Shown here: in pieces, positions 7,853-32,652 of the stretch
Layout: every line of letters begins with the position of its first letter
Numbering within the stretch: the stretch's first letter is position 1
Assembly (NCBI GenBank): GCA_001914705.1
Contig: MNDB01000071.1
Coordinates: 1-36,065 of the forward strand
Reading direction: 5' to 3'
Length of the DNA: 36,065 nt
DNA from: Actinobacteria bacterium 13_2_20CM_68_14
GTDB taxonomy: Bacteria; Actinomycetota; Thermoleophilia; Gaiellales; Gaiellaceae
The notes under the pieces: model-generated
What the model was told of the DNA's origin: nothing
Database searches by the model: none
Seen by the model: the letters and a program-made list of their open reading frames with translations, nothing else
Made by a program: the position numbers and the translations under genes

Positions 7853-7945
7853 ACCCGACAGACCTCGCCGGCCGCGGGCCGCATCGTCAAGGACAGCGGT
7901 CCCGATGCCGAAGCAAAGGTATTCATGTGCAGCGCTTTCGGCGAC

Positions 7946-8123
7946 AAAAATGAAAGGCCCCGGCTGCGGCACCCGGGGCCTTTCTATCTAGTTGAGCGGC
8001 TTCTAGAGGCGACGACCCGGAAGCTATGACTCTGCGGCCCAGCCACCGCTTCCGGGTATCCGTCGCCATTCCTTGGCGCGCCCCCTGCAGCTCCGACCTG
8101 GCGTCCGGCGGTGCTGCAGAGTT
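7946..8123 (-). ncRNA. Candidate small non-coding RNA (about 175-180 nt), family unknown
   Basis: It is bounded by a near-consensus promoter (next feature) and the terminator at 7952..7984 plus its U-tract. Strong internal hairpins are present, for example CUCUGCAGC...GCUGCAG and GGCGACG-gaua-CCCGGAAGC...GCUUCCGGG-u-CGUCGCC. The only ATG ORF (49 codons) has no spaced SD and reads through the terminator. Ends are +/- a few nt. Confidence 0.55.
7952..7984. terminator. Bidirectional intrinsic terminator hairpin (12-bp GC-rich stem)
   Basis: The stem is GAAAGGCCCCGG / CCGGGGCCTTTC with loop ctgcggcac. On the minus strand it is followed by AUUUUU (7951..7946). On the plus strand it is followed by uaucua after the UUUC of the stem. 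Confidence 0.75.
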
Positions 8124-8128
8124 GCCTG

Positions 8129-8157
8129 ACTATAGACCTGTCCCCGGAGGTCGTCAA
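8129..8157 (-). promoter_or_regulatory. Sigma-70/SigA-type promoter TTGACG-N17-TATAGT driving the candidate sRNA
   Basis: On the minus strand the -35 TTGACG lies at 8157..8152, the spacer is exactly 17 nt, and the -10 TATAGT lies at 8134..8129. A purine about 6-7 nt downstream (about 8123) is the likely TSS. Confidence 0.6.
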
Positions 8158-8263
8158 GTAGCTCGATCAAGTGATTTTCAGGCTCGGCGCTTGACTCGTT
8201 TTTCGCGCGTACATGCCCCTTTAGGGGGAGGACGGAATGGCCAGGGTTGCTTATTGGTGAAGT

Positions 8264-9631
8264 ATGCAGTTGACTTCCCGTGAGTCGCTCATGCCGCGCG
8301 CTGCCACGAACACCCGCCGCAGCACCCACTCGGGCAATCGCCTGGGCGAGCGCGTGCGGCAGCTGCGCGTCGCCGCCGGCCTGACGCAGACCGATCTCGC
8401 GGGCGACCGTTTCTCGAAGGAGTACGTCAGCCAGATCGAGCGCGGCAAGACCAGGCCCACGCGCGAGACCATCGAGTGGCTCGCGGTCAAGCTCGGCGTC
8501 GATCCCGGCTTCCTCGAGCGTGGCGTCTCGGCAGACGAGCGCCGGCGCGTCGACACGTTGCTCGCGCGCGCGGACGCGCTGACCGAATCCCATCAGTACG
8601 CAGAGGCGATCGCCGAGTACGAGAACTGCAAGACGGCCGTCCTCGCGACGGGTGTGACCGAGCTCGAGGTTCGCCAGCTCGCGGGCGAGGCTTGGGCTCG
8701 GATGGAGAACAGCGAAATCCAGCCCGCGATCGAGTTGCTCAACCGGGCGCGGATGCTTGCCGAGGCGCCGGAGTTCTCCGACGTCGATCGCGCGGATCTG
8801 TTCTTCCGCCTCGCCGTCTGCCGCTACCAGCTCTCCAGCATCACGACAGCGCTCAACCTCCTCAACGAGGCTCTGACGCTGGCCGAGGGCTCCGAGCTTC
8901 CGTGCGACCGTCTGCGCGCGGACATCCTCGGCTGGCGCTCGCGCTGTTACCGCCGCCAGCGAGACTTCGAAGCAGCGCGCGAGGACGTCGAGCGCGCGCT
9001 CGAGCTCGCGCAGGCGCTCGACGATCCGCGCAAGACCGCGGACACGTACTTCCAGGCTTCTCTTGTCAGCGAGCGGATGGGGCACTGGGTCCAGGCGCGC
9101 AATTACGCTGAGCGCGCGAAGGCCTACTACGAGCAGATCAACGACGAGCGAAACGTCGGCAGGCTGCTCAACAACCTCGGTGGCCTGAACTTCCACCTCG
9201 GCAAGCCCGAGCAGGCGATCGAGCATCTCAAGGACGCGTACCGCGTGCTGCTCGACAAGGGCAGCGACGCGGAGGCCGCGAATGTCGTCGCATCACTCGC
9301 CCACGTGCACCTGATGACGGGCGAGGCGACCGCGGCCGAAGAGGAAGCACGTCACGCGCTCTCCCTGATGGAGAACCGCGACGACTTCCTCTACCACGTC
9401 GCTCCGACGCAGCTCGTGCTGGGTCGAGCGTTGATGGAACAGGGGCGCCTGGACGAGGCGGAGGAATTTCTCGCCGCGTCCGATGCGAGCGCCGAGCAGC
9501 TCGAGTCCATCGGCCACCAGGCGGCAGCCTGGATGGCTCGTGGCGACCTCGCCGCCAAGCGTGGCGAGGACAGCGCTGCGGCCAAGCTCTACCGCCGGGC
9601 GGCGGAAGCACTGCAGGACGTCCGGTTCTAA
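8264..9631 (+). CDS. XRE-family HTH + tetratricopeptide-repeat transcriptional regulator (RRNPP-like receptor architecture)
   Basis: The 455-aa ORF has an N-terminal Cro/C1-type HTH (LGERVRQLRVAAGLTQTDLAG...YVSQIERGKTRPTRETIEWLAVKLGV). The rest consists of repeated about-34-aa helical TPR-like units (...YAEAIAEYENC..., ...FEAAREDVERALELAQ..., ...WVQARNYAERAKAYYEQ..., ...PEQAIEHLKDAYRV..., ...LDEAEEFLAAS...). Confidence 0.85.
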   Translation: MQLTSRESLMPRAATNTRRSTHSGNRLGERVRQLRVAAGLTQTDLAGDRFSKEYVSQIERGKTRPTRETIEWLAVKLGVDPGFLERGVSADERRRVDTLLARADALTESHQYAEAIAEYENCKTAVLATGVTELEVRQLAGEAWARMENSEIQPAIELLNRARMLAEAPEFSDVDRADLFFRLAVCRYQLSSITTALNLLNEALTLAEGSELPCDRLRADILGWRSRCYRRQRDFEAAREDVERALELAQALDDPRKTADTYFQASLVSERMGHWVQARNYAERAKAYYEQINDERNVGRLLNNLGGLNFHLGKPEQAIEHLKDAYRVLLDKGSDAEAANVVASLAHVHLMTGEATAAEEEARHALSLMENRDDFLYHVAPTQLVLGRALMEQGRLDEAEEFLAASDASAEQLESIGHQAAAWMARGDLAAKRGEDSAAAKLYRRAAEALQDVRF

Positions 9632-9650
9632 TCGACGAGAGGAGGTGAAT

Positions 9651-9857
9651 ATGAAAAAGACGCGACTTCTCCCCTTGCTTTGTGCCCTCACCGCTGTTGC
9701 ATGGTCGCTTCCCGGCCTCGCCCAGGCGAAGGCCTCGAAGGCTCCGAATCACGCGAACGCGGCAAGCATGTTCGACGGCGGCAGCGCCTTCGACGGCGGC
9801 AGCGCCTTCGACGGCGGCAGCATGTTCGACGGCGGCAGCATGTTCGACGGTCACTAG
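9651..9857 (+). CDS. Small secreted pro-peptide (68 aa) with five C-terminal tandem hexapeptide repeats S(M/A)FDGG
   Basis: ATG 9651 is preceded by GGAGG (9641..9645) at ideal spacing, 19 nt after the regulator stop. The product is MKKTRLLPLLCALTAVAWSLPGLAQA|KASKAPNHANAA-SMFDGG-SAFDGG-SAFDGG-SMFDGG-SMFDGH. It has a classic n-h-c Sec signal with an AQA cleavage site. The track shows it only as the tail of a 124-aa ORF (9483..9857). Confidence 0.7.
   Translation: MKKTRLLPLLCALTAVAWSLPGLAQAKASKAPNHANAASMFDGGSAFDGGSAFDGGSMFDGGSMFDGH
9765..9854 (+). repeat. 5 x 18-bp perfect or near-perfect tandem repeat inside the pro-peptide ORF
   Basis: The units are agcatgttcgacggcggc / agcgccttcgacggcggc / agcgccttcgacggcggc / agcatgttcgacggcggc / agcatgttcgacggtcac. 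They start at 9765, 9783, 9801, 9819 and 9837. Confidence 0.95.
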
Positions 9858-9913
9858 GCCCGCGCGCGGTCTCCACCTCGTGAGGTCGGCGCGGGCCCGA
9901 GACTAAACTCGGG
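9857..9913 (+). terminator. Two GC-rich stem-loops directly after the pro-peptide stop (possible U-tract-less terminator)
   Basis: The first pairs GGCCCGCGC (9857..9865) with GCGCGGGCC (9889..9897) and has an inner CCTC-gt-GAGG. The second is CCCGAG-actaaa-CTCGGG (9896..9913). No T-run follows. Confidence 0.3.
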
Positions 9914-9921
9914 TCCGTGGC

Positions 9922-10027
9922 GTCTTGTCGACGTTCGATCTTTCGCGGCGACCTTGCAAGCCGGGATTAAGCGGACGCCCGAGCCAAGCTCGGACGTCCT
10001 CCGGGCGGCGTCGCAAGCGAACGCCTC
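9922..10027 (-). repeat. Interspersed two-hairpin repeat element, copy A (sense strand = minus)
   Basis: The minus strand reads GAGGCGTTCGCTTGCGACGCC-gcccGGAGGACGTCCGAGC-ttg-GCTCGGGCGTCC-GCTTAATCCCGG.... This is the same module order as the copies at 12213, 12323, 18134, 26122 and 28142. Confidence 0.75.
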
Positions 10028-10931
10028 GCGCGCCGTCTTCTTGGCCGTTCTCGTCGCGCTCGTTGCGGCAGGCTGCGGGACGAATAGCCGGCCTCCAAGC
10101 GGAGCTGGTGCTTCCGGCACGCTGGGGTCTCTGATGAAGCGGCCGGGCGAGGATGTGACCGTCGTCGCCGGCGACTCGGACTTCGCTGTCGGTGATGTCC
10201 GGTTCTCGTTCCTCGTCATCAACCACGACGCGCGGCCGGTCGAACGCAGCCGGGCGCGGGTCTGGCTCGCTGGCTCGCAGTCCGGGCGCCCGTTCCAGAG
10301 CGCGACCGCGAGGCTGGAGCCGATCGGGCCGCCGGGCGCCGGCGAGGCGGCGTTCGGGGGGGTCGGCCGGATCTACGTCGTGCAGCTCCGCATTCACCGC
10401 CCGGGCCGCTACTGGCTCGTCGCCGAGCCGATCGGGGCAAAGATCCAGGCGCTCGGAACACTGGACGTCAAGGCGCGTTCCGATTCGGTCGCGGTCGGCG
10501 CAAAGGCGCCGGCTTCGGCCACGCCCACGCTCGCCAGCACCCATGGCGCGGTCTCGCAGCTGACTACCCGCGTGCCGCCGGATCGGGACCTGCTTCGTTA
10601 CTCGATCGCTTCCTCGCTGGCCGCCCACAAGCCGTTTGTCGTCACCTTCGCGACCCCGCGCTTCTGCACGAGCCGAACCTGTGGGCCGGTCGTAGACGTC
10701 GTCGACCGCGTGCGTCGCAAGTTCGCAGCCCGCGGCGTCCGCTTCATTCACGTCGAAGTCTTCAAGCAAAACCGGCCTGCACTCGGCTACAACCGCTGGA
10801 TGCGACAGTGGGGCCTGCAGTCGGAGCCGTGGACCTTCCTCGTCGGCCGGGACGGCCGGATCGAGGCCAAGTTCGAGGGCTCCGTCTCGGCGGCGGAGCT
10901 GGAAGCGGCGATCCGGCAGTTGCTCTCGTAG
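9954..10931 (+). CDS. Putative lipoprotein with a C-terminal thioredoxin-fold (redoxin/SCO-like) domain
   Basis: The 325-aa ORF has a lipobox LVAAGC after a hydrophobic stretch (AVFLAVLVALVAAGCG). The C-terminal part reads KPFVVTFATPRFCTSRTCGPVVDVV...WTFLVGRDGRIEAKFEG, typical of redoxin-fold proteins. The start (TTG 9954) is uncertain and lies inside repeat copy A. Confidence 0.55.
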   Translation: MQAGIKRTPEPSSDVLRAASQANASRAVFLAVLVALVAAGCGTNSRPPSGAGASGTLGSLMKRPGEDVTVVAGDSDFAVGDVRFSFLVINHDARPVERSRARVWLAGSQSGRPFQSATARLEPIGPPGAGEAAFGGVGRIYVVQLRIHRPGRYWLVAEPIGAKIQALGTLDVKARSDSVAVGAKAPASATPTLASTHGAVSQLTTRVPPDRDLLRYSIASSLAAHKPFVVTFATPRFCTSRTCGPVVDVVDRVRRKFAARGVRFIHVEVFKQNRPALGYNRWMRQWGLQSEPWTFLVGRDGRIEAKFEGSVSAAELEAAIRQLLS

Positions 10932-11077: not shown

Positions 11078-11929
11078 ATGGCGGAGAACGGATACGCGAA
11101 GCCGGTACTCGTGACCACCGACTGGCTGGCCGAGCACCTGAACGACGACAGCGTCGTGGTCGCCGAGGTCGACGAGAACCCCGATCTGTACGACGAGGGA
11201 CACATCGCGGGGGCGGTCAAGCTGCACTGGCGCGACGACCTACAGGATCCCGTCGAGCGCGATTTGGTCGACAAGCCGACCTTCGAGCGCCTGCTCAGCG
11301 AGCGCGGGATCGCGAACGACACAACCCTCGTCCTCTACGGCGACAAGAACAACTGGTTCGCGGCCTACGCCTACTGGTACCTGAAGATCTACGGGCACGG
11401 CGACGTGCGCATCCTCGACGGCGGCCGCCAGAAGTGGGCGGATGAGGCACGTGAGTTCACGGCCGAGACCCCGCAGCCGCAACAGGCCGACTACAGGGCC
11501 AACGAGCGCGACGAGTCGATCCGGACGTACCGGGACTCTGTCAGAGCGCAGATCGGCGAGCAGTCGAAGGCGCTCGTCGACGTCCGCAGCCCGCAAGAGT
11601 ACGCCGGCGACCTGATCGCCCCGCCCGGCTACGAGCAGGAGGGCGCGCAACGGGCCGGCCACATCCCGACCGCGGCGTCGATTCCCTGGGCAACGGCCGT
11701 CCGCGACGACGGGACCTTCAAGAGCGCAGACGAGCTCCGCGAACTCTACGAGGGGAAAGGCGTCACGCCGGAAAAAGAGGTGACAGCGTACTGCCGGATC
11801 GGCGAGCGCAGCGCTCACACCTGGTTCGTCCTCCGCGAACTGCTGGGCTACGAAACGGTCAAGAACTACGACGGCTCGTGGACGGAGTGGGGCAACCTCG
11901 TCGACGTGCCGATCGAAAAGGGTTCCTAG
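11078..11929 (+). CDS. Thiosulfate sulfurtransferase (tandem rhodanese, CysA2/SseA type)
   Basis: The 283-aa ORF has a strong SD AGGAGG. It is collinear with mycobacterial CysA2-type rhodaneses as I recall them: ...[22 protein letters not shown]..., [28 protein letters not shown] and the active-site loop [35 protein letters not shown]. Confidence 0.9.
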
Positions 11930-12522: not shown

Positions 12523-13560
12523 ATGGATCTCGAAGCCACCAGCGTCAAGCTCACGGACCTCGCCTCGTGCGGGGGCTGCGCAGCCAAGTACTCGGCCGCA
12601 CGCCTCGAGCAGCTGCTGGCCGGCTTCGTTCCCGTCGAGGCCGAGAACCTGCTGGTCGGGCTCGCGCCGGCGGACGACGCGGCCGTCTACCGCCTCGACG
12701 ACGAGCGCGCGCTCATCTTCACGCTCGACTTCTTTCCGCCCGTCGTGGACGATGCCGCCGACTACGGCGCGATCGCCGCGACGAACGCGCTCAATGACGT
12801 CTTCGCGATGGGCGGCATGCCGCTGCTCGCGCTCTCGATCGCGGCTTTCCCCGAGGAGCTGCCGACGGAGATCCTGGCGCGCATCTTCGCCGCCGCCGAC
12901 GAGCAGGTCCGGGCTTCGGGCGCGCTGCTGGCGGGCGGGCACACGATCCGCGACGCCGAGCCGAAGTACGGCCTTGCGGTCGTGGGCACCGTTCATCCCG
13001 AGGCGATCTGGCACAAGAACGGCGCCCGGGTCGGGGACGCGCTCTTCTTGACGAAGCCGCTCGGAACCGGGCTGATCATGAGCGGCCACCAGAAAGGGCT
13101 GACAGGCTCCCAGCCGCTCGAGCGCGCTGTTCAGTGGATGCGCACGCTGAACAAGGACGCCGCCGAGTTGCTTCGCTCGAGGACGCCCGGCGCGGTCACA
13201 GACGTCACCGGATTCGGTCTGTTTGGTCACGCGCACGAGGTGGCCGAGCGGAGCGGCGTGCGGCTCGTGCTCGAGTGGGAGCGTCTGCCGGCGATCGACG
13301 GCGCGCTCGACCTCGCGCGCAAGGACGTGCGCACGAGCGGCGACCCGCGAAACCGCGACTTCGCCGCTGCGCACGTGGCGCTCGACGGCACGCCGGAGGC
13401 GATCGTCGCGCTCGGCTTCGATCCCCAGACCGCTGGCGGTCTGCTCATTTCGCTGCCCTCCGAACAGGGACCCGCGCTCGAGGCCGAGTTCGAGGCGCGC
13501 AAGCTCTTTCTCCGCAGGATCGGACGGGTCGAGGAGGGCTTCGGAGTTCAGGTGCAGTGA
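12523..13560 (+). CDS. selD: Selenide, water dikinase (selenophosphate synthetase), Cys-type
   Basis: The 345-aa ORF has an N-terminal LTDLASCGGCAAK (the glycine-rich Cys/Sec loop of SelD), DDAAVY and the PurM-like fold motifs DFFPPVVDD..YGAIAATNALNDVFAMGG, LLAGGHTI and VTDVTGFGLFGH. Confidence 0.9.
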   Translation: MDLEATSVKLTDLASCGGCAAKYSAARLEQLLAGFVPVEAENLLVGLAPADDAAVYRLDDERALIFTLDFFPPVVDDAADYGAIAATNALNDVFAMGGMPLLALSIAAFPEELPTEILARIFAAADEQVRASGALLAGGHTIRDAEPKYGLAVVGTVHPEAIWHKNGARVGDALFLTKPLGTGLIMSGHQKGLTGSQPLERAVQWMRTLNKDAAELLRSRTPGAVTDVTGFGLFGHAHEVAERSGVRLVLEWERLPAIDGALDLARKDVRTSGDPRNRDFAAAHVALDGTPEAIVALGFDPQTAGGLLISLPSEQGPALEAEFEARKLFLRRIGRVEEGFGVQVQ

Positions 13561-14099
13561 GTCGCCGTGGGATGATCCACGGCCGGTTTCAGCCTTTCCA
13601 TAACGGCCACCTCGAGTACCTGCGCGGCGCGGCCGAGCGCTCCGACGAGGTCTGGATCGGAATCACGAACCCCGATCCGGAGCACATCAAGCCGGAGGCC
13701 AGCGACCCGCTGCGCCACCTGCCCGAGTCGAACCCGTTCTCCTACGCCGAGCGACTGCTGATGGTGAAAGCCGCTGCCGCCGAGGTCGGGCTCGAGCCCG
13801 GCGCAGTCCACGTGATTCCGTTTCCGGTCAACGAGCCCGAGCTCTGGCCGGCGTACGTGCCCGAAGGGGTCACGCAGTATCTGCGGCTTTTTTCCGCTTG
13901 GGGCGGGACCAAGCTCGACCGCCTGCGCGAGGCGGGCTACGAGGTCGTGATCCTCGACGAGGGGGCGGAGAAGGAGATTTCCGGCGCCGACGTCCGGGCG
14001 GCGTTACGCGACGGCGGCGACTGGGAGTCGCTGGTACCTCCGGGCGTCGCTCGCGTAGTGCGCGAGCTTTATGACTCGCTGAACGTAAAACCGTTGTAA
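13557..14099 (+). CDS. HxGH cytidylyl/adenylyltransferase-family protein, NadM-like (archaeal-type NMN adenylyltransferase-like)
   Basis: It lies in the frame of track ORF 13134..14099. The sequence is ...MIHGRFQPFHNGHLEYL... (GRxQPFHxGH motif) and ...ISGADVRAALRDGGDWESLVPPGVARVV... (compare the ISGTxxR...W..LVP motif of NadM/NadR). A GTG at 13557 overlaps the selD stop (GTGA). The ATG at 13572 is the alternative start. Confidence 0.75.
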   Translation: MSRRGMIHGRFQPFHNGHLEYLRGAAERSDEVWIGITNPDPEHIKPEASDPLRHLPESNPFSYAERLLMVKAAAAEVGLEPGAVHVIPFPVNEPELWPAYVPEGVTQYLRLFSAWGGTKLDRLREAGYEVVILDEGAEKEISGADVRAALRDGGDWESLVPPGVARVVRELYDSLNVKPL

Positions 14100-14170
14100 G
14101 CGCGCGAGCAACTTTTCGGCTGCGGCTCCGTTTTAACAACTGCCGCAAACGAGAAGGGGTTAGGTGAGTC

Positions 14171-15049
14171 ATGAAAAAGCTCTTCATCCCATTGCTCGCA
14201 GTCGCTGCCCTCGCCGTTGGCGCCTCGCCGGCCATGCCGGCGTCGACAGCGACGGTGACGGTTCAGATCAAACGCCTTTCGTTCGTCCCGACGACAGCGA
14301 GCATCAAGACGGGCGATACGGTCAGGTGGGTCAATTCGGACACGCAGAACCATCAGGTCGTGTCCAACAACGGATCGTTCGTCTCGCCGATACTCGGTCC
14401 CGGCAAGACCTATTCGCACCGCTTTACTGCCGCAGCCATCTACCGCTACCACGACGGCCTGAACGCTGCGGTCAAGGGCACCGTCAGGGTGACGGGGCCG
14501 CCGCCCGCGGTGACGATCGGCGCCTCGCTTCCGATCATCGTCTACGGGCAGCAGGTCACACTCTCTGGCACCGCCTCGAGTGGCAACCCGAACGAGAGGG
14601 TGACGATCTACCAGCAGCCCTATCCGCAAACCTCGTTCGCTGAGATGACAACCGTTCTGACGACGACGGGAGGGGCGTGGAATCTCGTCCTGACGCCGTC
14701 GCCGAAGACGCTGACCCAGTACCAGGCGAAGTGGAACGGCCGCACGAGCGTCACCGTGGGCGTCCAGGTTCGCCCGCGGATCAGGCTCAGCTATCGCAAC
14801 GGAAGGTTCACTACGATCGTCCAGTCGGCGGCTTCGCACGCGCGCCGCTCGGTACAGGCTCAGAGGCTTTCGCGCTTCGGCCAGTGGGTGACGCTGAAGA
14901 AGGTCCGGCTCGGCGGCCAGTCGAGCGCGGTCTTCAGGCTGACCCTGCCGACGGGGAAGTCACAGATTCGCGTCGCCATGTCCATCAACCAGGCTGGCGC
15001 TGGTTACCTCGCCGGGTACAGCCCGACGATCACAGTTCGGCGCCGCTAG
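14171..15049 (+). CDS. Secreted protein with an N-terminal cupredoxin-like domain, function unknown
   Basis: The 292-aa ORF has the signal peptide MKKLFIPLLAVAALAVGASPAMPA. It continues FVPTTASIKTGDTVRWVNSDTQNHQV...YRYHDGLNAAVKGTVRV (plastocyanin/EfeO-cupredoxin-like strand pattern). No Cys ligand is present, so it is probably not a type-1 copper site. Confidence 0.55.
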   Translation: MKKLFIPLLAVAALAVGASPAMPASTATVTVQIKRLSFVPTTASIKTGDTVRWVNSDTQNHQVVSNNGSFVSPILGPGKTYSHRFTAAAIYRYHDGLNAAVKGTVRVTGPPPAVTIGASLPIIVYGQQVTLSGTASSGNPNERVTIYQQPYPQTSFAEMTTVLTTTGGAWNLVLTPSPKTLTQYQAKWNGRTSVTVGVQVRPRIRLSYRNGRFTTIVQSAASHARRSVQAQRLSRFGQWVTLKKVRLGGQSSAVFRLTLPTGKSQIRVAMSINQAGAGYLAGYSPTITVRRR

Positions 15050-17166: not shown

Positions 17167-18132
17167 GTGCACGTCGAGTCGACGTCGGCGGCGCGCCGGG
17201 CGCGCTCGTTTGCGCTCCAGCCGGTCTGGTTCCTGCGGTTAGCCGCGCTCGAGCTCTTTGCACTCTGGGTGATCGTCGCGACGGGCGCGGCCGTCCGCTT
17301 GACCAGCTCCGGTCTCGGCTGCCGCCACTGGCCGGGCTGCGAAGCCGGCCATCCGCTGCCGGCGAAGGACTACCACGCGTACATCGAGTTCGGAAACCGG
17401 GTCGTCGGCGGCGTGACGATCCTGATCACGCTCTTCGTTGCGGTGGCGGCTTTCTGGACGCCGCTCGGACGGCGGGCGAAGCAGCTCGCGGTCGCGGTTT
17501 TCGCCGGGACTCTCGCGCAGGCGCCGCTCGGCTATCTCGCCGTCAAGACCGACCTGCGCTGGCCAGTCGTGGCGGCCCATCTGCTGCTGTCAATGGTGTT
17601 GCTCGCGGGTGCGGTCGTGCTGGTCTTCTTCGCCTCCGAGCTCATCGGCGGGCGAGCCGAGCCGCTCGTCCCACGGGAGCTCCGGCTCTACGGCGCCGGC
17701 GTCGCGGTCGCGGGGCTGGCGCTCGTCGTCAGCGGTGCGCTCGCCACCGCGGCGGGCCCGCACTCGGGTGGCGGAACGACGGAAGTCCACAGGCTCGCTC
17801 GCTTAGAACCGGTTCTCTACGCTCATGCGGGGGTCGTGGCGGTCTTCGGCTGCGCGTTCCTGTTCCTGCTCGGCTATCTGGCGGCCCGGCGATCGCGGGC
17901 GCCGCGGCTGTTCATCGCCGCGCTGGCCGTGCTCGCGGTCCTGCTCGTGCAGGTCGGCCTGGGCGAGCTGCAGTACCGGCTGCATCTGCCCTGGTATCTC
18001 GTGTTGCTGCACGTCGCCGTCGCCGCGACCGCCTGGGCCGGCATCGTTGCCCTCATCACAGCCTTCTGGCGCCCGCCGGCCTGGTTGGCGGTTCGCCATG
18101 CCGACGACCCACCGGTCCGTGCGTCGTACTAG
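17167..18132 (+). CDS. ctaA: Heme A synthase (COX15/CtaA family)
   Basis: The 321-aa polytopic membrane protein has TSSGLGCRHWPGC (the Cys pair of CtaA loop 1), HAYIEFGNR, and conserved His in later helices (AAHLLLS, LHVAVA). The start is a GTG. Confidence 0.8.
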   Translation: MHVESTSAARRARSFALQPVWFLRLAALELFALWVIVATGAAVRLTSSGLGCRHWPGCEAGHPLPAKDYHAYIEFGNRVVGGVTILITLFVAVAAFWTPLGRRAKQLAVAVFAGTLAQAPLGYLAVKTDLRWPVVAAHLLLSMVLLAGAVVLVFFASELIGGRAEPLVPRELRLYGAGVAVAGLALVVSGALATAAGPHSGGGTTEVHRLARLEPVLYAHAGVVAVFGCAFLFLLGYLAARRSRAPRLFIAALAVLAVLLVQVGLGELQYRLHLPWYLVLLHVAVAATAWAGIVALITAFWRPPAWLAVRHADDPPVRASY

Positions 18133-19124: not shown

Positions 19125-20732
19125 CTACCCGAAGGTAAACGAGTAGACAGAGACGCCGGGCGTGAAGCTGAGGCGAAGCTGGGCGTCCAGCAGCTGTGGC
19201 CGGGTCACGACCGTGTACAGGCGGTCGATCCCCTTGACGGCGATGGTCCGTAGTTTGTGGCCGTCGACCGAGACGCCGACGCTGCCGTGGCCGCCCATGA
19301 CGAGGTAGACATCCTTCGCGTGGAAGTGGAGCGCAAGCTCTGCGTCTCGCACGGCGGTCGTATGCTCGCCACCGAGCCGCCAACGACCTGACAGCGCCCA
19401 GCTGTTCTGGCTGACGTCCTCCGGGGCCTTGTAGTTGTGTGCAACGTTGGGCAAAGCCTTCGAGCCCACATAGCCCGTGAGCTGCCGGTCGTAGCCGAGG
19501 TAGGTCTCGGGAGTCGTCAACTCGGTCGGCGTCATGTCGGCGAGGTCGGCCTTCCCAGGCCCTGCTTCGCCGAGGAGCTGCCGGATCAGGTTCTCCGTCC
19601 GGCTGTACTCACCCTCGCCAAAGTGCTCGTTGCGGATGTCCCCGCGCTTGTCGATCAGGTACTCGGCCGGCCAGTACTGGTTCCGGTAGGCGTTCCACGT
19701 CTTGTACTTCGGATCGAGCGCGACGGGCCAGCTGACGCCGAGCTGCTTGGTCGCCGAGCCGACGTTGTGCGGCACCGCCTCGAACGCGAACTCCGGCGTG
19801 TGAACGCCGACGATCTCCAGTCCGGCCCGGTGGTAGGCCTTCCACCAGGACTTCAGGTGCGGCAGCGTCCGCAGGCAGTTGATGCAGGAGTACGTCCAGA
19901 AATCGACGAGGACGACCTTGCCGCGGAGCTGCTGCAGCGTCAGCGGCTTCGAGTTGAACCAGTCGCTGATGCCGGTGAAGGCGGGCGCGGGACCGAAGTT
20001 CGCAAGGTTGCTCGACTCGTGGTGACAGCGTCCGGTCAGCCGTTGCTGAACCGCGCAGCTGTTCTGGAGCCGGTCGGCGAGCCCCAACGTGCCGATGTTC
20101 GCGAGCGAGCGATCGACGTTGAACGTGATCAGCAGAGCCGTCACCGCGATCAGGGCACCGAGGCCGGCGCGAACCTGGGCCGCGTGCGCCCGGAAGAACT
20201 GCAAGCCGCCGGCTGCACGCCGGCCGCCGTAGGCGACCGCCAGCATCGGCAGTGCGATGCCGATCGCGTAGGCCAGCGCCACCGCCTCGCGCTCCCCGCT
20301 GCCGACGCTCGCAGAGCCGGTGATGATCGAGGCGAGAATCAGGCCGCCGCAGGGCACGAAGACGAGCCCGAGCGCCAGCCCGAGCACGAACCCGCCACCG
20401 AGATCGCCCCCGGGCCGGCGGCTGAAGCGGGCTAGCGGGCGCTCGAGCACCTGGCCCAGGCGGGGAACGAGCAGGGTCGCCGCGACGACGAAGAGGAGCG
20501 CGATCGAGATGTTGCGCAGGAGATCCTGGGGGAGGTGAAGCTGTCGCAGCAGCCATGACACCGCGAGCAGCGAGCCGGTGAAGCCGACGACGACTCCGGC
20601 GATGATCGCAAGCGGGCGGCGGTGCCCTCCGCTCGCGCCGCCTGCGAAGACGATCGGTAAGACCGGGAACGCGCAGGGTGAGACCGCGGTGATGACACCG
20701 ACGAGAAAGGCGACCCCGAGCAGAAGAGCCAC
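19125..20732 (-). CDS. dipZ: DipZ-type fusion protein: CcdA/DsbD-like thiol-disulfide transporter + thioredoxin-like domain + C-terminal beta-sandwich domain
   Basis: The 535-aa ORF has N-terminal TM helices with conserved Cys (VSPCAFPVLP, FVPCGG). These are followed by KVVLVDFWTYSCINCLRTLPHL (CxxC redoxin) and a C-terminal domain ...LSGRWRLGGEH...LHFHAKDVYLVMGG... The start is a GTG. Confidence 0.85.
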   Translation of the reverse strand: MALLLGVAFLVGVITAVSPCAFPVLPIVFAGGASGGHRRPLAIIAGVVVGFTGSLLAVSWLLRQLHLPQDLLRNISIALLFVVAATLLVPRLGQVLERPLARFSRRPGGDLGGGFVLGLALGLVFVPCGGLILASIITGSASVGSGEREAVALAYAIGIALPMLAVAYGGRRAAGGLQFFRAHAAQVRAGLGALIAVTALLITFNVDRSLANIGTLGLADRLQNSCAVQQRLTGRCHHESSNLANFGPAPAFTGISDWFNSKPLTLQQLRGKVVLVDFWTYSCINCLRTLPHLKSWWKAYHRAGLEIVGVHTPEFAFEAVPHNVGSATKQLGVSWPVALDPKYKTWNAYRNQYWPAEYLIDKRGDIRNEHFGEGEYSRTENLIRQLLGEAGPGKADLADMTPTELTTPETYLGYDRQLTGYVGSKALPNVAHNYKAPEDVSQNSWALSGRWRLGGEHTTAVRDAELALHFHAKDVYLVMGGHGSVGVSVDGHKLRTIAVKGIDRLYTVVTRPQLLDAQLRLSFTPGVSVYSFTFG

Positions 20733-20761
20733 GGCTTATGGTCCTTCGTTGAAGCCGGGCG

Positions 20762-23266
20762 TTACGGTTCTGGCGCCGGCGCGGGCTCCGGCTTTGCCGG
20801 CTCGTCTGTCGGCTTCGTGGCGTCCTGCGCCGCCTGCGGCTGCTGCTGCCCGTTCTGGGCCTGCTGCTGCTGCTGCTGCTGCGCGTTCTGAGACTTCTTC
20901 TTGCGCCGTCTCCGCCGCCGGCGCGATCTTCCGCTCGGCTGCTTGGGCGCCGGCAGGTTCTCGGCGAGCCCGTGCGCGACTTCCGGCAGCGTGCCGAGCT
21001 GCTCGCGGGCGGCGTCGATCAGCTGGTTGGCGCGCGGTGTGTAGCCCTCGGCGGATGCGAGCAGCGCCGCCCCCACTTCGAGCGGTTGCTCGCGGGCGGC
21101 GTTGACGAGCTTCGCGGCGTTCTCCTCGTGACGGTGTCCCCGCGAGTTGGCCAGCGCCCCGAGCAGGCGTTTCGCCTCCGGGAACTCGGCGCTCGCCCGG
21201 CGATCCTGCACCTTGCGCGTTGCGCGCGCGAGCCGCCAGATCCAGCGGGCGAGGATCTGCTCGGGCGCATCGGCTTTACCCTCGCCGATCGCGCGCAGGA
21301 GGATGCGGACTCCCTGGACGCGGTCCTTCTCCCAGGTCGGAGCCTGGGTGACCAGGGTGACGAGATCGTCGAAATCAGCGCGCTCGACCACCATCGAGAC
21401 GCGGTCGGCGAGAGCCGTCATTCGCAGCCGGCGGTTCGGGTTCTCCGCGGCGCAGGTGGCCAGGAAAGTCTCGAGCGCACCCCTGGACGCGCCGCCCTCG
21501 GTGAACTTCTTCGCGAACTCGACACGCTCGTCGAAGCGGACGTTGCGACCGGCGATCGTCGCCCAGTAGCGCTGCTCGTCCTCGTCGAGGAAGCGCGGGT
21601 CGATCCGCTGCCACTCGCGCGTGATCACACCGAGCCGGCGCTTCACGTCGGCCGTGACCGGCACGAGCCAGGGCGCCGGCGAGAGCTTCCGGCGGGCGCG
21701 CCGCTGCTGGCGGCGCCGAGGCGCCGGCGTGACGCGCGCGCCTTCGCGGTAGAAGTCGGAGTCGAGCAGGCTGTGCAGCGAGACGACGCGCTCGTTGTGG
21801 GTCGCCGCCTTGGGCACGAAGTCGACCACGACGCCCGCTTCCTTGCGCGGGTGCATGCGCATGATCCGGCCGATTCGCTGCTGGTAGACGCGCTTGCTCG
21901 CGGTCGGAGCCAGGTGCATGCAGACGGTCGCGCGCGGCGAGTTCCAACCCTCCGCGAGCAGCATTGCGTTGATCAGGACGTCAATCTCACCGCGCTCGTA
22001 GGCGGCGAGAATCTCGGCCAGCTTCACCGGCGGCGTCCGGCCGCTGACCGCCTCGGCCTTCAGCCCGGCCGCTCGGAACTCTTTCGCCAGGTTGTAGGCA
22101 TGCTCGACGCCGGCCGCGTAGACGATCCCGGGCGTCGAGTCGAAGCGGTCCCGGTAGAGGCTCGCGGCAGCCTGGTTCAGGGCCTGGTGGTCGAGCGCCT
22201 GCGCCAGGGCTCGCTCTTCGAAGTCGCCGCCGACGATCGGCACGGTGTGGATCGCCGCGGCCGGTGGAACGCGTAGGGAGCGCAGGGGCGCGATCAGCCC
22301 GCGCCGGGCCGCATCGGCCAGCGGCAGGTCGTCGACGGAAGCAGGAAAGACGTCCGAGACCTGCTTCGCGATCAGCTGCTCGGTCGCGGTCATGCCGATG
22401 TAGATCGGGTTCGTGAAGCCGCGGATCGCCGCGCTCGTCTTCTCGCCGAGGGCGGTGTGGGCCTCGTCGGCGATCACGAGGTGGTACGCCTCCGGGTTCA
22501 GGTCGCCCCAGTGGCGCGCGAACCAGGCGTAGGTCTGGATCGTCAGCGGGTTCGCTTCGGGCGGCTCTTGGCCGCGCTCGATGGCGTCGACTATCCGGTC
22601 GCCGTACCCCTCGGCCGTCAGGTCGCGGTTGAACTGGGAAACGAGCAGGCGGCGGTGGGTGAGGATGAGCACGCCCAGCGTGCGCGCGGCCTCGACGAAC
22701 CCGGCGGCGGCGATCGTCTTGCCGGACGCGGTCGGATGCCTAAAGCGAAAGCGGCGGACTGCGCCGGGGTCTTCTTCAGGCGAGAGCGGCAGCGGCAGCT
22801 CGTCCCCGTCGCCGTCGGCGGCCGCCGCCGGCTCCAGCTCGTCTTCCTCCTCCTCGTCGACCTCCGGCTCGGCGTAGGCGCCGTTCCCGTTCCCGAGCTC
22901 AGGCGCGGCCTGAGCCGCGGCGATCAATTCGGTGAGCATGCCGGCGAGCGCGTCGATCTGGTGCTTCCGCAGCTCGGTTCCGGAGGCGAGCCGCGGCGGA
23001 CGGTTGGTGAGCACGCGCTCGAGCCCGAGCATCAGCGCGTAGCGGCGCTTCCATTCGTAGGAGGGCGTGGTGCGGCCCGCGTCCATCTCCTCCACGGCGT
23101 CGTCGAGAGCAAGCCTGCGGGCAGTTCCGGGGGCCAGTACGACGGCAGGGTCTTCGTCGGCCCGGAGAAATGGCTCTCCGGCCCAGTCTTGCGCGCGGGC
23201 GGCGGTCTCGGTGAGACCGTTTGCCGCCTCCGGCGCTAGCGTCGGCTGCTCGGTCGTCTCTTGCAT
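20762..23266 (-). CDS. Superfamily-2 DEAD/DEAH-box (ResIII-like) helicase with a long C-terminal extension and a basic/poly-Q tail
   Basis: Track ORF 20762..23359. It has Walker A HPTASGKT, motif II VIADEAH, motif III MTAT and motif VI YQQRIGRIMR. A C-terminal region of about 330 aa of unknown function ends in [35 protein letters not shown].... The start is taken as ATG 23266 (MQETTEQ); ATG 23359 is also possible. Confidence 0.8.
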   Translation of the reverse strand: MQETTEQPTLAPEAANGLTETAARAQDWAGEPFLRADEDPAVVLAPGTARRLALDDAVEEMDAGRTTPSYEWKRRYALMLGLERVLTNRPPRLASGTELRKHQIDALAGMLTELIAAAQAAPELGNGNGAYAEPEVDEEEEDELEPAAAADGDGDELPLPLSPEEDPGAVRRFRFRHPTASGKTIAAAGFVEAARTLGVLILTHRRLLVSQFNRDLTAEGYGDRIVDAIERGQEPPEANPLTIQTYAWFARHWGDLNPEAYHLVIADEAHTALGEKTSAAIRGFTNPIYIGMTATEQLIAKQVSDVFPASVDDLPLADAARRGLIAPLRSLRVPPAAAIHTVPIVGGDFEERALAQALDHQALNQAAASLYRDRFDSTPGIVYAAGVEHAYNLAKEFRAAGLKAEAVSGRTPPVKLAEILAAYERGEIDVLINAMLLAEGWNSPRATVCMHLAPTASKRVYQQRIGRIMRMHPRKEAGVVVDFVPKAATHNERVVSLHSLLDSDFYREGARVTPAPRRRQQRRARRKLSPAPWLVPVTADVKRRLGVITREWQRIDPRFLDEDEQRYWATIAGRNVRFDERVEFAKKFTEGGASRGALETFLATCAAENPNRRLRMTALADRVSMVVERADFDDLVTLVTQAPTWEKDRVQGVRILLRAIGEGKADAPEQILARWIWRLARATRKVQDRRASAEFPEAKRLLGALANSRGHRHEENAAKLVNAAREQPLEVGAALLASAEGYTPRANQLIDAAREQLGTLPEVAHGLAENLPAPKQPSGRSRRRRRRRKKKSQNAQQQQQQQAQNGQQQPQAAQDATKPTDEPAKPEPAPAPEP

Positions 23267-30365: not shown

Positions 30366-31220
30366 CTAAGCAGCGAGGCGCCCGGGGACGTCGATCGTCC
30401 CCTGGCCGAGACCGGCGAGCATGTACACGCTCGCCAGACCGGCCCATTCACCGTATGGCTCGAGCAGCTCCGCGGTCTCCCAGCCTTCAACGCGGCGCCC
30501 GCGCATTCGGGCGAGCAGTTTGATCAGTCCAAGGTCGCCTACGAGCCCCCGCTCGTAGCGCCCGAGGCCTTCCAGGCAGACGACGCCGACCGACCACGGG
30601 CCGATTCTCGCCTCCCGGACGAGCCGCGCAGCGGCGGCGTCCGTCGAAACCTCCCGCAGCCGCTCGAGGTCAAGCGAGCGGCACAGCCGGACAAGCGCGC
30701 TCGCGCGCGGCCCGCCGAGGCCGAGCGCCCGGAGCTCGGCCGGCGAAAACCGGCCCATCACCGCAGGCGTCGGCGCCGCGTGCAGGCCGTCCAGCGAAGG
30801 CGTCGACGCGCGCACGACCCGGCGCTCAATCTCCCGCGCCCTACGCGCCGTGATCAGCTGGCCGCAGAGTGCGCGGAGCAGGGCCTGGGTTACCGTTGCG
30901 CACCGCAGGGGTCGCAGCCCTTTGAGCCGCCGAACCGTCGCTCCCAGGAACGGGTCGCGAGCGAAGCGCTGCACGAACTCCGAGTGGTCGTCGTCGAGCC
31001 CGAGCGTAAACCGCACGCGCTCGACCGCTTCCTCGCTTGGTGCGCGGACGACCACCACGCCGTCAGCGAGTTGTCGCGCCTCGGCGATCGCGAGCCGGCC
31101 GCCCACCTCGTAGACGGCGCGGAGAACTCCGCGGGCTGCGACCCGTGTCGCGTCGCTGCCGTGCCGCGTCGAGAGTCGGAGCGAATAGGGACCGCGCGCT
31201 CGGAGCGAAGCCTCGATCAA
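30366..31220 (-). CDS. HhH-GPD superfamily DNA glycosylase (AlkA-like DNA-3-methyladenine glycosylase II)
   Basis: The 284-aa ORF reads ...LLRALCGQLITARRAREIE..., ...REARIGPWSVGVVCLEGLGRYERGLVGDLGL... (helix-hairpin-helix + catalytic Asp region). The TTG start at 31220 overlaps the upstream stop (TTGA). Confidence 0.65.
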   Translation of the reverse strand: MIEASLRARGPYSLRLSTRHGSDATRVAARGVLRAVYEVGGRLAIAEARQLADGVVVVRAPSEEAVERVRFTLGLDDDHSEFVQRFARDPFLGATVRRLKGLRPLRCATVTQALLRALCGQLITARRAREIERRVVRASTPSLDGLHAAPTPAVMGRFSPAELRALGLGGPRASALVRLCRSLDLERLREVSTDAAAARLVREARIGPWSVGVVCLEGLGRYERGLVGDLGLIKLLARMRGRRVEGWETAELLEPYGEWAGLASVYMLAGLGQGTIDVPGRLAA

Positions 31221-32536
31221 CCGCGACTCTGTACGGGCTTCGAGGCGCTGAGCTGGGCTGCGCGGTCGAGGACGTCGAGCGCCTCCGACTCTCGCCCGGA
31301 CTTGCGCAGATAGCGAGCCCAGGCGCGGAACGCGTCCGCCTTCTCGACCTGCCGCCCGTGCTTCTCGATGAGCTCGACTGCGCGTTCGAAGGTCTCGTTC
31401 GCTTCGGGCTTTTCCTGTTGCGCAAGTGCCTCGGCCAGAATCACCAAGACGACGCCGTGCTCTGCCGGATGGTCATCGCCTAGCGCGGAGAGAGCTTCGC
31501 GGGCAAGCCGCTCCGACTCCTCCGGCCGGTTGAGTAGACCGGCGCGCCTTGCCTGGTCGGCGCGGAGATTTGCGAGATCGAGCGGATCGGGCTTCTGCCC
31601 GAACATCCGCTCGGCCGCATCGAATTGCGCCCCGGCTTCCTGCACCTTTCCCTGAGAGATCATGATCGTGCCGCAGAGCAGATGTGCACGCGCGAGATGG
31701 AGCGTGTCTTCCGTCACCTCGAGTAGCGCGATCGCGCGCCGGATGTAGTCGAGCGCGGCCGCCGGCTGGCCGCGAACCTCGTTCAGACGAGCCAGCGACC
31801 AGTAGAGCCGGACTCGCGTATAGGGGTCGGTCACCTGCTTGGCTTGAGCGAGCGCGTCTTCGAGCACGCCCTCTGCACGACTGAGGTCGCCCAGGTCGCT
31901 GAGCGCGTAGCTCAGGTACGTCGAAAAGCGAACCTGATTCGTGGTGTCTTCGGGATGTTCTTCTGCCACACGGACGAGACAGGCTTCGAAGAGGTCGACG
32001 GCGCGCTGCGGCTGGCCCAGAGAGGCATAGCACTGACCCAGCGTCGCGTAGACATCGGGACGCTGCGACGGGCCCAGGAGCTCGGACCCAATTGCGGCCT
32101 CCAGGCGCTCGACCGCGGCGGTGTTGTTCCCGGCCCGCGCCTCGGCGAGCCCGAGCGCGACACGGGCGCGGAGCGCAGAGGCCGAGTCGCCCGCAGCGAT
32201 CGCGTCATCGAGGATCCCCTGGACGGTGTCGCAGGCTTCCCCGGGATCGTCGGCCAGGCGCAGCCTGAGCTCCGCATCGGCAAGCCGGAGCTCTCGCTCG
32301 TCGACCTCGCGGAGATCGGACCCGGTCTCGAGGTATTCCACTGAGACGCCGAGCTTCGGAGCGAGCTGTCTGAGGGCCTTGACGGACGGGCGCCGCGCTT
32401 CTGCCTCGATCCGCGAGATGTAGGCATACGAGACCCCGGGAGACGAGAGCTCGCGCTGCGAAAGGTTGCGTTCGAGGCGTAATCGGCGCAGGCGCTGCCC
32501 GATTGACTCTGGTCCAGTCGTCGGTGGCCCCACCAT
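31217..32536 (-). CDS. XRE-family HTH + TPR transcriptional regulator, second paralog (no adjacent peptide ORF)
   Basis: Track ORF 31217..32650, trimmed to ATG 32536 (MVGPPTTGPESIGQRLRRLRLERNLSQRELS...YISRIEAEARRPSVKALRQLAPKLGV). The remainder is TPR-like repeats (...PQRAVDLFEACL..., ...LSRAEGVLEDALAQAK..., ...PAAALDYIRRAIALLE..., ...VQEAGAQFDAAERMF...). Confidence 0.8.
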   Translation of the reverse strand: MVGPPTTGPESIGQRLRRLRLERNLSQRELSSPGVSYAYISRIEAEARRPSVKALRQLAPKLGVSVEYLETGSDLREVDERELRLADAELRLRLADDPGEACDTVQGILDDAIAAGDSASALRARVALGLAEARAGNNTAAVERLEAAIGSELLGPSQRPDVYATLGQCYASLGQPQRAVDLFEACLVRVAEEHPEDTTNQVRFSTYLSYALSDLGDLSRAEGVLEDALAQAKQVTDPYTRVRLYWSLARLNEVRGQPAAALDYIRRAIALLEVTEDTLHLARAHLLCGTIMISQGKVQEAGAQFDAAERMFGQKPDPLDLANLRADQARRAGLLNRPEESERLAREALSALGDDHPAEHGVVLVILAEALAQQEKPEANETFERAVELIEKHGRQVEKADAFRAWARYLRKSGRESEALDVLDRAAQLSASKPVQSRG

Positions 32537-32652
32537 CGCCTGCGGCCTATCTTCGTCCTTCAGACGGCTGCCGTCAAAACCCAGGCGCGTGGATGTCTGA
32601 CAACAAATGACTACACAGCTTTCGGACCCACCCTCCTCTAGGCTTCGCACGC

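Follow-up and report, generated by a model that had tools for sequence, protein, structure and literature searches.

A regulator with XRE and TPR domains and its small peptide partner: a candidate RRNPP-like signalling module of the Gaiellaceae

Do the Gaiellaceae, a soil family of Actinomycetota, carry a peptide-signalling system of the kind described from Bacillota? The question is raised by a locus in a stretch of 36,065 nucleotides from Actinobacteria bacterium 13_2_20CM_68_14 (assembly GCA_001914705.1, contig MNDB01000071.1), here called the window, where a gene for a 455-residue protein with an XRE-type helix-turn-helix (HTH) and a tetratricopeptide repeat (TPR) region is followed by a short open reading frame (ORF) with the look of a secreted pro-peptide. 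A sequence-only reading of this DNA had taken the pair for an RRNPP-like receptor and its peptide, in an accessory cassette of a high-GC actinobacterial-type genome; the host does belong to such a group, the family Gaiellaceae. Our analysis places the pair in the core genome of that family and, on balance, leads us to favour peptide signalling as its purpose.

The regulator gene (8264..9631, + strand) is taken from the ORF list. Pfam locates the HTH at residues 26-84 (nt 8339-8515; HTH_31, E = 9e-13; HTH_3, E = 1e-8), while TPR models match about residues 150-453 (TPR_12, E = 5e-23, together with TPR_2, TPR_1 and TPR_MalT). An AlphaFold2 model built on 28 homologues, with a mean predicted local distance difference test score of 84, comprises five short N-terminal HTH helices and then 17 more that continue to residue 453; with Pfam, it delimits an all-helical TPR-like domain at about residues 90-453 (nt 8531-9622). 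The translation shows no evident signal sequence or transmembrane segment. Homologues are abundant (more than 7000 at E <= 1e-5, and 271 clusters at 50% identity with E <= 1e-30), and the residues conserved across the family comprise an LLNNLGGLN motif and many arginines. Invariant arginines on the conserved TPR surface are R225, R230, R231, R233, R271, R279, R388, R395 and R444. Judged from sequence, the motif and the arginines are compatible with the holding of an extended acidic peptide. The motif itself recalls the Leu-Gly-Asn repeats whose asparagines hold an extended peptide in LGN.

The regulator gene ends in a TAA codon at 9629-9631, and the small ORF (9651..9857, + strand, 68 residues) begins 19 nt later, with its ATG at 9651. 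A Shine-Dalgarno sequence, AGGAGGTGA, occupies 9640..9648 on the same strand and ends 2 nt ahead of the ATG. The predicted product reads MKKTRLLPLLCALTAVAWSLPGLAQA|KASKAPNHANAA, followed by SMFDGG SAFDGG SAFDGG SMFDGG SMFDGH. Its signal-like leader (residues 1-26, nt 9651-9728) ends in AQA|K; by inspection, its N-terminal region carries a charge of +3, its core is hydrophobic and positions -3 to -1 read A-Q-A, so that it appears to fit the (-3,-1) rule with a canonical A-x-A|K site. A 12-residue linker separates the leader from five S[M/A]FDG[G/H] units (residues 39-68, nt 9765-9854), a repeat also found by Tandem Repeats Finder as an 18-nt unit in 5.1 copies (9759-9850). The ORF, its spacing, its GGAGG-type ribosome-binding site and its short repetitive C-terminus are thus as the sequence-only reading had described them, as is the HTH-TPR architecture of the regulator, and the proposed Sec-type signal looks sound on inspection. 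A 12-bp GC-rich hairpin without a U-tract lies beyond the ORF (9890..9919, + strand); the RNA fold of 9850-9950 (-48.6 kcal/mol, z = -2.2) is a weak hint that this candidate terminator may close a regulator-peptide transcription unit. A search with seven representative peptides of the family returned no Pfam or NCBIfam family.

The case for the small ORF as a partner of the regulator comes from comparison. We analysed about 155 loci with enough downstream sequence, in which the regulators are 41-96% identical to that of the window; several hundred further public loci matched the same scans beyond the pairs analysed. A partner ORF of 25-73 residues was found in all of these about 155 related loci (in two of them shortened); its product has a basic N-terminus and then a hydrophobic stretch, and its C-terminal core is typically aromatic-x-Asp-Gly. 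Within the main clade, each of the 79 genome loci that extend beyond the regulator stop has an ORF of 28-73 residues, starting at most about 45 nt past that stop and 7-24 nt past it in most; over the main clade as a whole, the distance is 7-40 nt in nearly all loci. The Shine-Dalgarno sequence (A)AGGAGGTGA is nearly invariant ahead of the partner ORF in related loci, and the C-terminal cores of the main clade include GSWFDGH, VGFFDGH, GGGFFDNWF, GFSDGPL and SWWDGG. A second scan, seeded with a 45%-identical homologue, yielded 80 metagenome loci with the same small-ORF pattern.

The pairing also holds where the arrangement of the genes differs. In a convergent clade, with regulators 46-50% identical to that of the window, the peptide gene is convergent and lies about 70-100 nt downstream; it encodes (V/M)FTKGNTRYIVVALTALAGxLASLGGGWFDGS, ending in ...LASLGGGWFDGS. 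In more distant homologues the context changes as well: a 42%-identical regulator between hrcA and dnaJ (locus L082) is paired with a small ORF ending ...GGRGFHEW, 45%-identical regulators after a glycosyltransferase gene (L084 and L085) with MINKGTLARLFVSVAAFASLASLAGGFFDGH about 150 nt downstream, and two 46%-identical regulators, one on a short contig (L167) and one adjoining FTCD (L169), with ORFs that end ...GGGFVGH and read MNKGNLLLVLIVLTSFLAMLGGGFVDGH, respectively. The pair therefore persists through tight co-directional, spaced co-directional and convergent arrangements and through several genomic contexts, which points to functional linkage. The small ORF is the conserved partner of this regulator family, and the linkage is independent of orientation; the comparative check proposed in the sequence-only reading, whether the regulators of relatives carry a small export-type ORF, comes out in its favour. 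We take the family to end short of a 32%-identical HTH-TPR homologue, which is followed 12 nt later by a 95-residue SHOCT-domain protein (L081:2199-2486) and no short peptide; on sequence, this homologue appears to mark the family boundary.

Across 154 receptor-peptide pairs (138 unique peptides), the commonest core motifs are WFDG (52), FFDG (29), MFDG (8) and WWDG (6), followed by rarer variants, and aspartate holds the third core position in the large majority of pairs. The median peptide is 36 residues long, with an N-terminal net charge of +2 and an uncharged stretch of 19 residues (interquartile range 16-21). The core ends at most one residue from the C-terminus in 84 of the 138 unique peptides, many variants have 2-9 residues after Asp-Gly, and Gly-Gly precedes the core in many family members. 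Tandem core copies are restricted to 10 of the 138, mostly from the window's own subclade. Codon-position GC in 143 small ORFs averages 0.62, 0.44 and 0.82 at the first, second and third positions, with the third highest in 91%, and several public assemblies already call these ORFs as genes. Given a frame, Shine-Dalgarno sequence, leader and core conserved in about 155 loci, together with this coding-like GC, the small ORF is a real gene.

To what kind of receptor does the regulator correspond? When the profile of the regulator family was searched against PDB sequences, PlcR matched with E = 1e-9 over its residues 3-98 (the HTH and beyond), RapJ (E = 2e-7) and RapH (E = 5e-7) matched in the TPR region, ComR matched in the HTH only, and the HTH domain of DdrO was also a match to the regulator HTH. 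Consensus TPR designs, LGN/Pins and kinesin light chains scored equal to or above PlcR and the Rap proteins. The structural ranking agrees: Foldseek against the PDB places LGN/Pins first (E = 3e-9, TM-score 0.4-0.5), PlcR 30th and the Rap proteins 36th to 48th (TM-scores 0.3-0.45), with PlcR-peptide-DNA complexes among the significant matches. LGN/Pins and the kinesin light chains, the best structural and profile matches, are eukaryotic scaffolds that have no DNA-binding domains, in contrast to the regulator; their similarity to it is one of common fold class, not of common system. From these profile and fold ranks we assign the regulator to a class that joins a peptide-binding TPR superhelix to an XRE HTH, with no described RRNPP subfamily to hold it. 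Membership in one of those subfamilies (Rap, Rgg, NprR, PlcR, PrgX, AimR) was considered and rejected, as no specific profile or fold match was obtained. By profile and predicted fold, then, the regulator is built like PlcR or NprR and lies outside every described RRNPP subfamily. The RRNPP-like label given earlier survives in the HTH-TPR architecture and in the conserved partner with an export leader; it finds no match in profile or fold to a described subfamily.

The reading that we favour, with a probability of about 0.5, is that the pair forms an undescribed RRNPP-like module, in which a pro-peptide would be exported, matured and re-imported, would bind the TPR domain and would alter DNA binding. 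The parts on which it draws are established: the domain architecture, the linkage of receptor and peptide genes, the coding signature and core of the peptide, and the conserved promoter and small RNA (sRNA) upstream, described below. The 455-residue protein would serve as cytoplasmic receptor and transcription factor in one. With a strong ribosome-binding site of its own, the small ORF would be translated into a pre-pro-peptide and exported through its N-terminal leader, in the window's clade as a classical substrate of Sec and signal peptidase I that would be cut after AQA. Trimming would then release one or several short aromatic-x-Asp-Gly peptides, in the window up to five S[M/A]FDG[G/H] copies. 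Following re-uptake, such a peptide would bind in the TPR groove of the receptor and change the engagement of its HTH with the GTCAAGT-type repeats upstream. Expression would thereby be set for the regulator-peptide unit and, within the main clade, also for a divergent sRNA of ~175 nt.

A number of observations weigh against this proposal. RRNPP-specific Pfam and NCBIfam models gave no match to the regulator at E <= 0.1, and its fold similarity is generic (TM-score 0.3-0.5). Most family members have no clear A-x-A site, and their uncharged 19-residue stretch fits a membrane anchor as well; the length of the hydrophobic stretch (median 19 residues) was tried as a test of signal peptide versus anchor and does not discriminate. 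No genes for an Opp-type oligopeptide permease were seen among the window genes scanned. RRNPP systems typically show fast pherotype diversification and an association with mobile elements, whereas this module shows neither. Strong conservation of Asp-Gly in a single-copy core locus not associated with mobile elements is a poor fit to classical quorum sensing, and what the signal conveys may be more physiological in kind than cell density. Two shortened small ORFs of the main clade, both behind an intact Shine-Dalgarno sequence, are likewise awkward: one of 10 residues, MTRDGFVDGH, without a hydrophobic leader (L091:2605-2680), and one of 18 residues, MAANALLASIASSYSDGH, with a short hydrophobic leader (L161:2319-2400). 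The genes may have decayed, or the ligand may here be made in a form that is not exported. Co-variation between receptor and peptide is suggestive at most. Mutual information over 152 pairs places the top columns for the first aromatic peptide residue within LLNNLGGLN, and in an exploratory comparison histidine at this position goes with N304E/L305I/G307A; each association is an event of a single clade, so that we do not count these signals as evidence.

Some of the same observations suit other explanations better. The small protein could be a co-regulated membrane or secreted effector, acting at the envelope by modulating a transporter or sensor or by binding metal, while the TPR part senses something else or mediates protein-protein contacts. 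The uncharged stretch would then be a single transmembrane helix, in keeping with its length (interquartile range 16-21) and with the want of an obvious signal-peptidase site in most members; the core is under strong purifying selection, as befits a motif with a structural or functional role and not a pheromone that diversifies, and the main-clade locus adjoins a major facilitator superfamily (MFS) transporter and a thioredoxin-like lipoprotein. We nevertheless regard an effector as unlikely, since the linkage with the regulator outlasts changes of orientation, spacing and context through which every other neighbour changes, TPR superhelices of this type bind peptides, and the apparently cleavable signal and tandem cores of the window clade suggest released peptides rather than an anchor. 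Less probable again is a membrane-tethered ligand or anti-regulator, whose C-terminal aromatic-x-Asp-Gly-(His)-COOH would be cytoplasmic and clamped by the TPR domain, keeping the regulator at the membrane until a cue frees it. Many TPR domains recognise free C-terminal peptides, such as Hop with EEVD and PEX5 with SKL, and here the core often sits at the C-terminus or one residue short of it, arginine abounds on the conserved TPR surface, which would suit an acidic C-terminal ligand, and the 10-residue version in L091 has no leader at all. Against such a tether, the positive-inside rule predicts an N-in/C-out topology from the N-terminal charge (median +2), peptides of the window clade combine a canonical signal-peptidase site with tandem copies in their interior, and the variants that continue for 2-9 residues past Asp-Gly are many.

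The repetitive, multi-copy core of the window peptide and the Gly-Gly ahead of the core in many members could also recall the precursor of a ribosomally synthesized and post-translationally modified peptide (RiPP) or a bacteriocin, with the TPR protein as pathway regulator or recognition partner, and the TPR region has a weak NCBIfam match to HaaT, a TPR protein of cyclophane RiPPs. This match (32 bits against a cut-off of 1125) amounts to generic TPR similarity. No radical SAM protein, YcaO, lanthipeptide synthetase, C39-peptidase ABC exporter or immunity gene is conserved beside the pair, whose neighbours in the main clade are acetyl-CoA synthetase, the MFS transporter, the thioredoxin-like lipoprotein and rhodanese and in other clades are different. 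With no modifying enzymes or exporters nearby, the RiPP and double-glycine leader readings were set aside, and we consider a RiPP precursor very improbable. The most trivial explanation is an accident of base composition: spurious long ORFs are abundant in high-GC DNA, and this window is no exception. The comparative data effectively refute it, as frame, Shine-Dalgarno sequence, leader and core are retained next to regulators of down to 41% identity, codon-position GC is coding-like, and gene callers report the small ORFs in several assemblies.

If the regulator responds to a peptide, where would it act? The gap of 410 nt between the MFS gene and the regulator gene retains 68-90% nucleotide identity in nearly all Gaiellaceae loci (blastn), and its conserved control region, from the sRNA promoter to the regulator start (8153..8263), holds candidate HTH operators. 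These comprise direct repeats (GTCAAGT at 8153-8159 and ATCAAGTG at 8166-8173), a TTGACT at 8191-8196, a palindrome of the form CCCC-N4-GGGG (ATGCCCC-TTTA-GGGGGA, 8213-8229) and a GTGAAGT that abuts the regulator ATG (8257-8263). The repeat and palindrome columns are invariant across 30 aligned loci, and a palindrome ACTTG[C/A]-N5-9-GT[C/G]AAGT occurs just ahead of the regulator start in 33 loci. In L082, GTCAAGT appears twice upstream of the regulator, next to a divergent -35/-10 pair. Within the window, GTSAAGT is not significantly enriched (5 found, 3.7 expected), so it is conservation across loci that makes the GTCAAGT-type repeats and the palindrome candidate operator sites for the regulator HTH. 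Where the peptide gene is separated from the regulator or convergent with it (L084:3720-3782; L088:2950-3000, - strand; L135:2100-2170, - strand), a conserved GAAAGGACTTGCGGC precedes its start codon; this element includes the ACTTGC half-site, which is also found ahead of the main-clade regulator start.

Divergently from the regulator, the same gap encodes a candidate structured sRNA of ~175 nt (7945..8122, - strand), with two stem-loops and a terminator made of a GC hairpin and U-run (7985->7945). Its promoter (8129..8157, - strand) has a -35 box TTGACG (8157-8152), a 17-nt spacer and a -10 box TATAGT (8134-8129); a promoter scan found this 1 site against 0.1 expected, and the alignment shows no variation in the TTGAC box or in the T, A and final T of the -10 box. 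The predicted fold is stable (minimum free energy -103 kcal/mol, z = -5.9). In an alignment of 27 sequences, pairing extends to 94.6% of cells, and in 15 of the 35 pairs both partners vary, a value reached in none of 500 shuffles, and controls slid along the alignment are far lower. Rfam gave no match in the window at the gathering threshold, and only chance-level matches at E <= 10 in 7880-8300. The apical loop of the long hairpin (about 8020-8040) and the terminator loop (7951-7985) present the same invariant heptamer, GCCGCAG in RNA sense, a repetition that suggests a protein-binding or seed motif.

By nhmmer, the sRNA is matched in 144 of 166 loci. It is found wherever the MFS-regulator context is, and also on two short contigs where regulator identity is 46-47%; the convergent clade, L082 and L084 lack it. 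The association of sRNA and regulator is therefore confounded with synteny, and a mobile trio that includes the sRNA was rejected as inseparable from the synteny of the MFS-regulator context. In the main clade, the sRNA may be a regulated output of the module.

Is the locus an accessory cassette? The closest proteins and loci all come from Gaiellaceae, Gaiellales or unclassified Actinomycetota metagenome-assembled genomes, mostly from soil. In 80 genome loci with regulators 60-96% identical to that of the window, the neighbourhood is largely shared, in the order acetyl-CoA synthetase (-), MFS transporter (+), regulator (+), small ORF (+), thioredoxin-like lipoprotein (+) and rhodanese (+); metagenome loci of the same clade have the same neighbourhood. 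Viral contigs yielded no relatives (a single match covers the HTH only), nor did PLSDB plasmids. The GC content of the locus, 0.674 against 0.690 +/- 0.016 for the window, is matched or undercut by 21% of equal-sized windows, and the locus, earlier described as locally GC-poor, is in this respect unexceptional. The idea of an accessory island marked by a GC dip is accordingly ruled out by ordinary GC, conserved synteny and the lack of viral or plasmid relatives. The module is a syntenic, vertically inherited chromosomal core locus of the Gaiellaceae.

How does such a module compare with known systems? With PlcR-PapR and NprR-NprX of the Bacillus cereus group it shares a receptor that joins an XRE HTH at the N-terminus to a peptide-binding domain of TPR type, and a small pro-peptide gene directly downstream on the same strand, with the signal (here predicted) in the C-terminal part. 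It differs in its host, Actinomycetota as opposed to Bacillota, and in the conservation of its aromatic-x-Asp-Gly core over a whole bacterial family; the regulator, at 455 residues, is also longer than PlcR, a 293-residue chain in its PDB entry. Rap proteins have no HTH, act by protein-protein interaction and are often carried on phages or plasmids, whereas an HTH is present here and no phage or plasmid relatives were found. The resemblance to Rap-Phr lies in the several tandem putative mature peptides behind a Sec signal, as in the five units of the window; tandem pheromone copies within a single propeptide are documented for Rap-Phr (PMC11343458), whereas in the present family they are found in just 10 of the 138 unique peptides.

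The arbitrium system of Bacillus phages (AimR-AimP-AimX) offers a further parallel, as it too combines an HTH-TPR receptor, a downstream pro-peptide gene and a small non-coding transcript as plausible output. The module described here is chromosomal and vertically inherited and not phage-borne, its sRNA lies upstream and divergent rather than downstream and would be under the control of the regulator only by inference, and this sRNA is absent from the convergent clade and some other contexts. With Rgg-SHP and ComR-ComS of streptococci it shares very short pro-peptides (about 25-45 residues), in which a hydrophobic leader takes up most of the length and the active part comes last, at the extreme C-terminus, and a peptide gene that is co-directional with or opposed to the regulator gene. 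The regulator does not match the C-terminal domain profiles of Rgg or ComR, and its peptides have an acidic Asp-Gly core in place of a purely hydrophobic tail; the streptococcal systems also have an exporter and a protease of their own, PptAB and Eep. Ancestry may be shared with the Firmicute systems, or XRE and TPR parts may have converged on the same design.

RRNPP(A) systems have been described as a feature of Bacillota (PMC10075063; PMC12700828), and small molecules such as butyrolactones are given as the signals of Actinomycetota (PMC10075063). The literature that we searched reports RRNPP(A) systems only for Bacillota and mobile elements, in agreement with the earlier statement that they are mainly known from Firmicutes, and describes no such cassette in Gaiellaceae or other Actinomycetota. 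What appears to be new, as judged from sequence comparison, is a known construction principle in a new phylum, without subfamily membership, with a new peptide motif and a possible sRNA output. It is plausible, if somewhat doubtful, that this is the first RRNPP-type system outside Bacillota, a core Gaiellaceae module with an aromatic-x-Asp-Gly 'alphabet' and a novel divergent sRNA as output. If so, HTH-TPR peptide signalling would extend to another phylum, in a form stably kept in the core genome instead of mobile and fast-evolving, and would open a first way into cell-cell or autocrine signalling among the Gaiellaceae, a dominant, poorly understood and almost uncultured soil family. The peptides are short, unmodified and predictable from sequence, and about 138 natural variants with cognate receptors are at hand, which makes the hypothesis directly testable; the sRNA and its conserved promoter could be used as a ready reporter.

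The window holds a few further features. A second HTH-TPR protein (31217-32650, - strand, 477 residues) is 27% identical to the first; the stop of its gene overlaps the start of a gene for a 284-residue protein without a Pfam match (30366-31220, - strand), and no small ORF with an FDG-type core was seen beside it. Downstream of the regulator locus, between 9954 and 20732, lies a series of redox- or copper-related genes: the thioredoxin-like lipoprotein (9954-10931), rhodanese (11078-11929), a cupredoxin-like protein (14171-15049), CtaA/COX15 (17167-18132) and a fusion of a DsbD transmembrane domain with thioredoxin (19125-20732, - strand). Among them, only the lipoprotein and rhodanese genes keep their place beside the cassette in relatives. 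The lowest-GC stretch of the window, 13501-15000 (0.635-0.643), is below the regulator locus in GC and overlaps the cupredoxin-like gene. A tRNA-Phe (GAA) gene (20718-20801, + strand) shares 15 nt with the very start of the DsbD-thioredoxin gene in its longest reading, so that the true start of the latter is probably further downstream.

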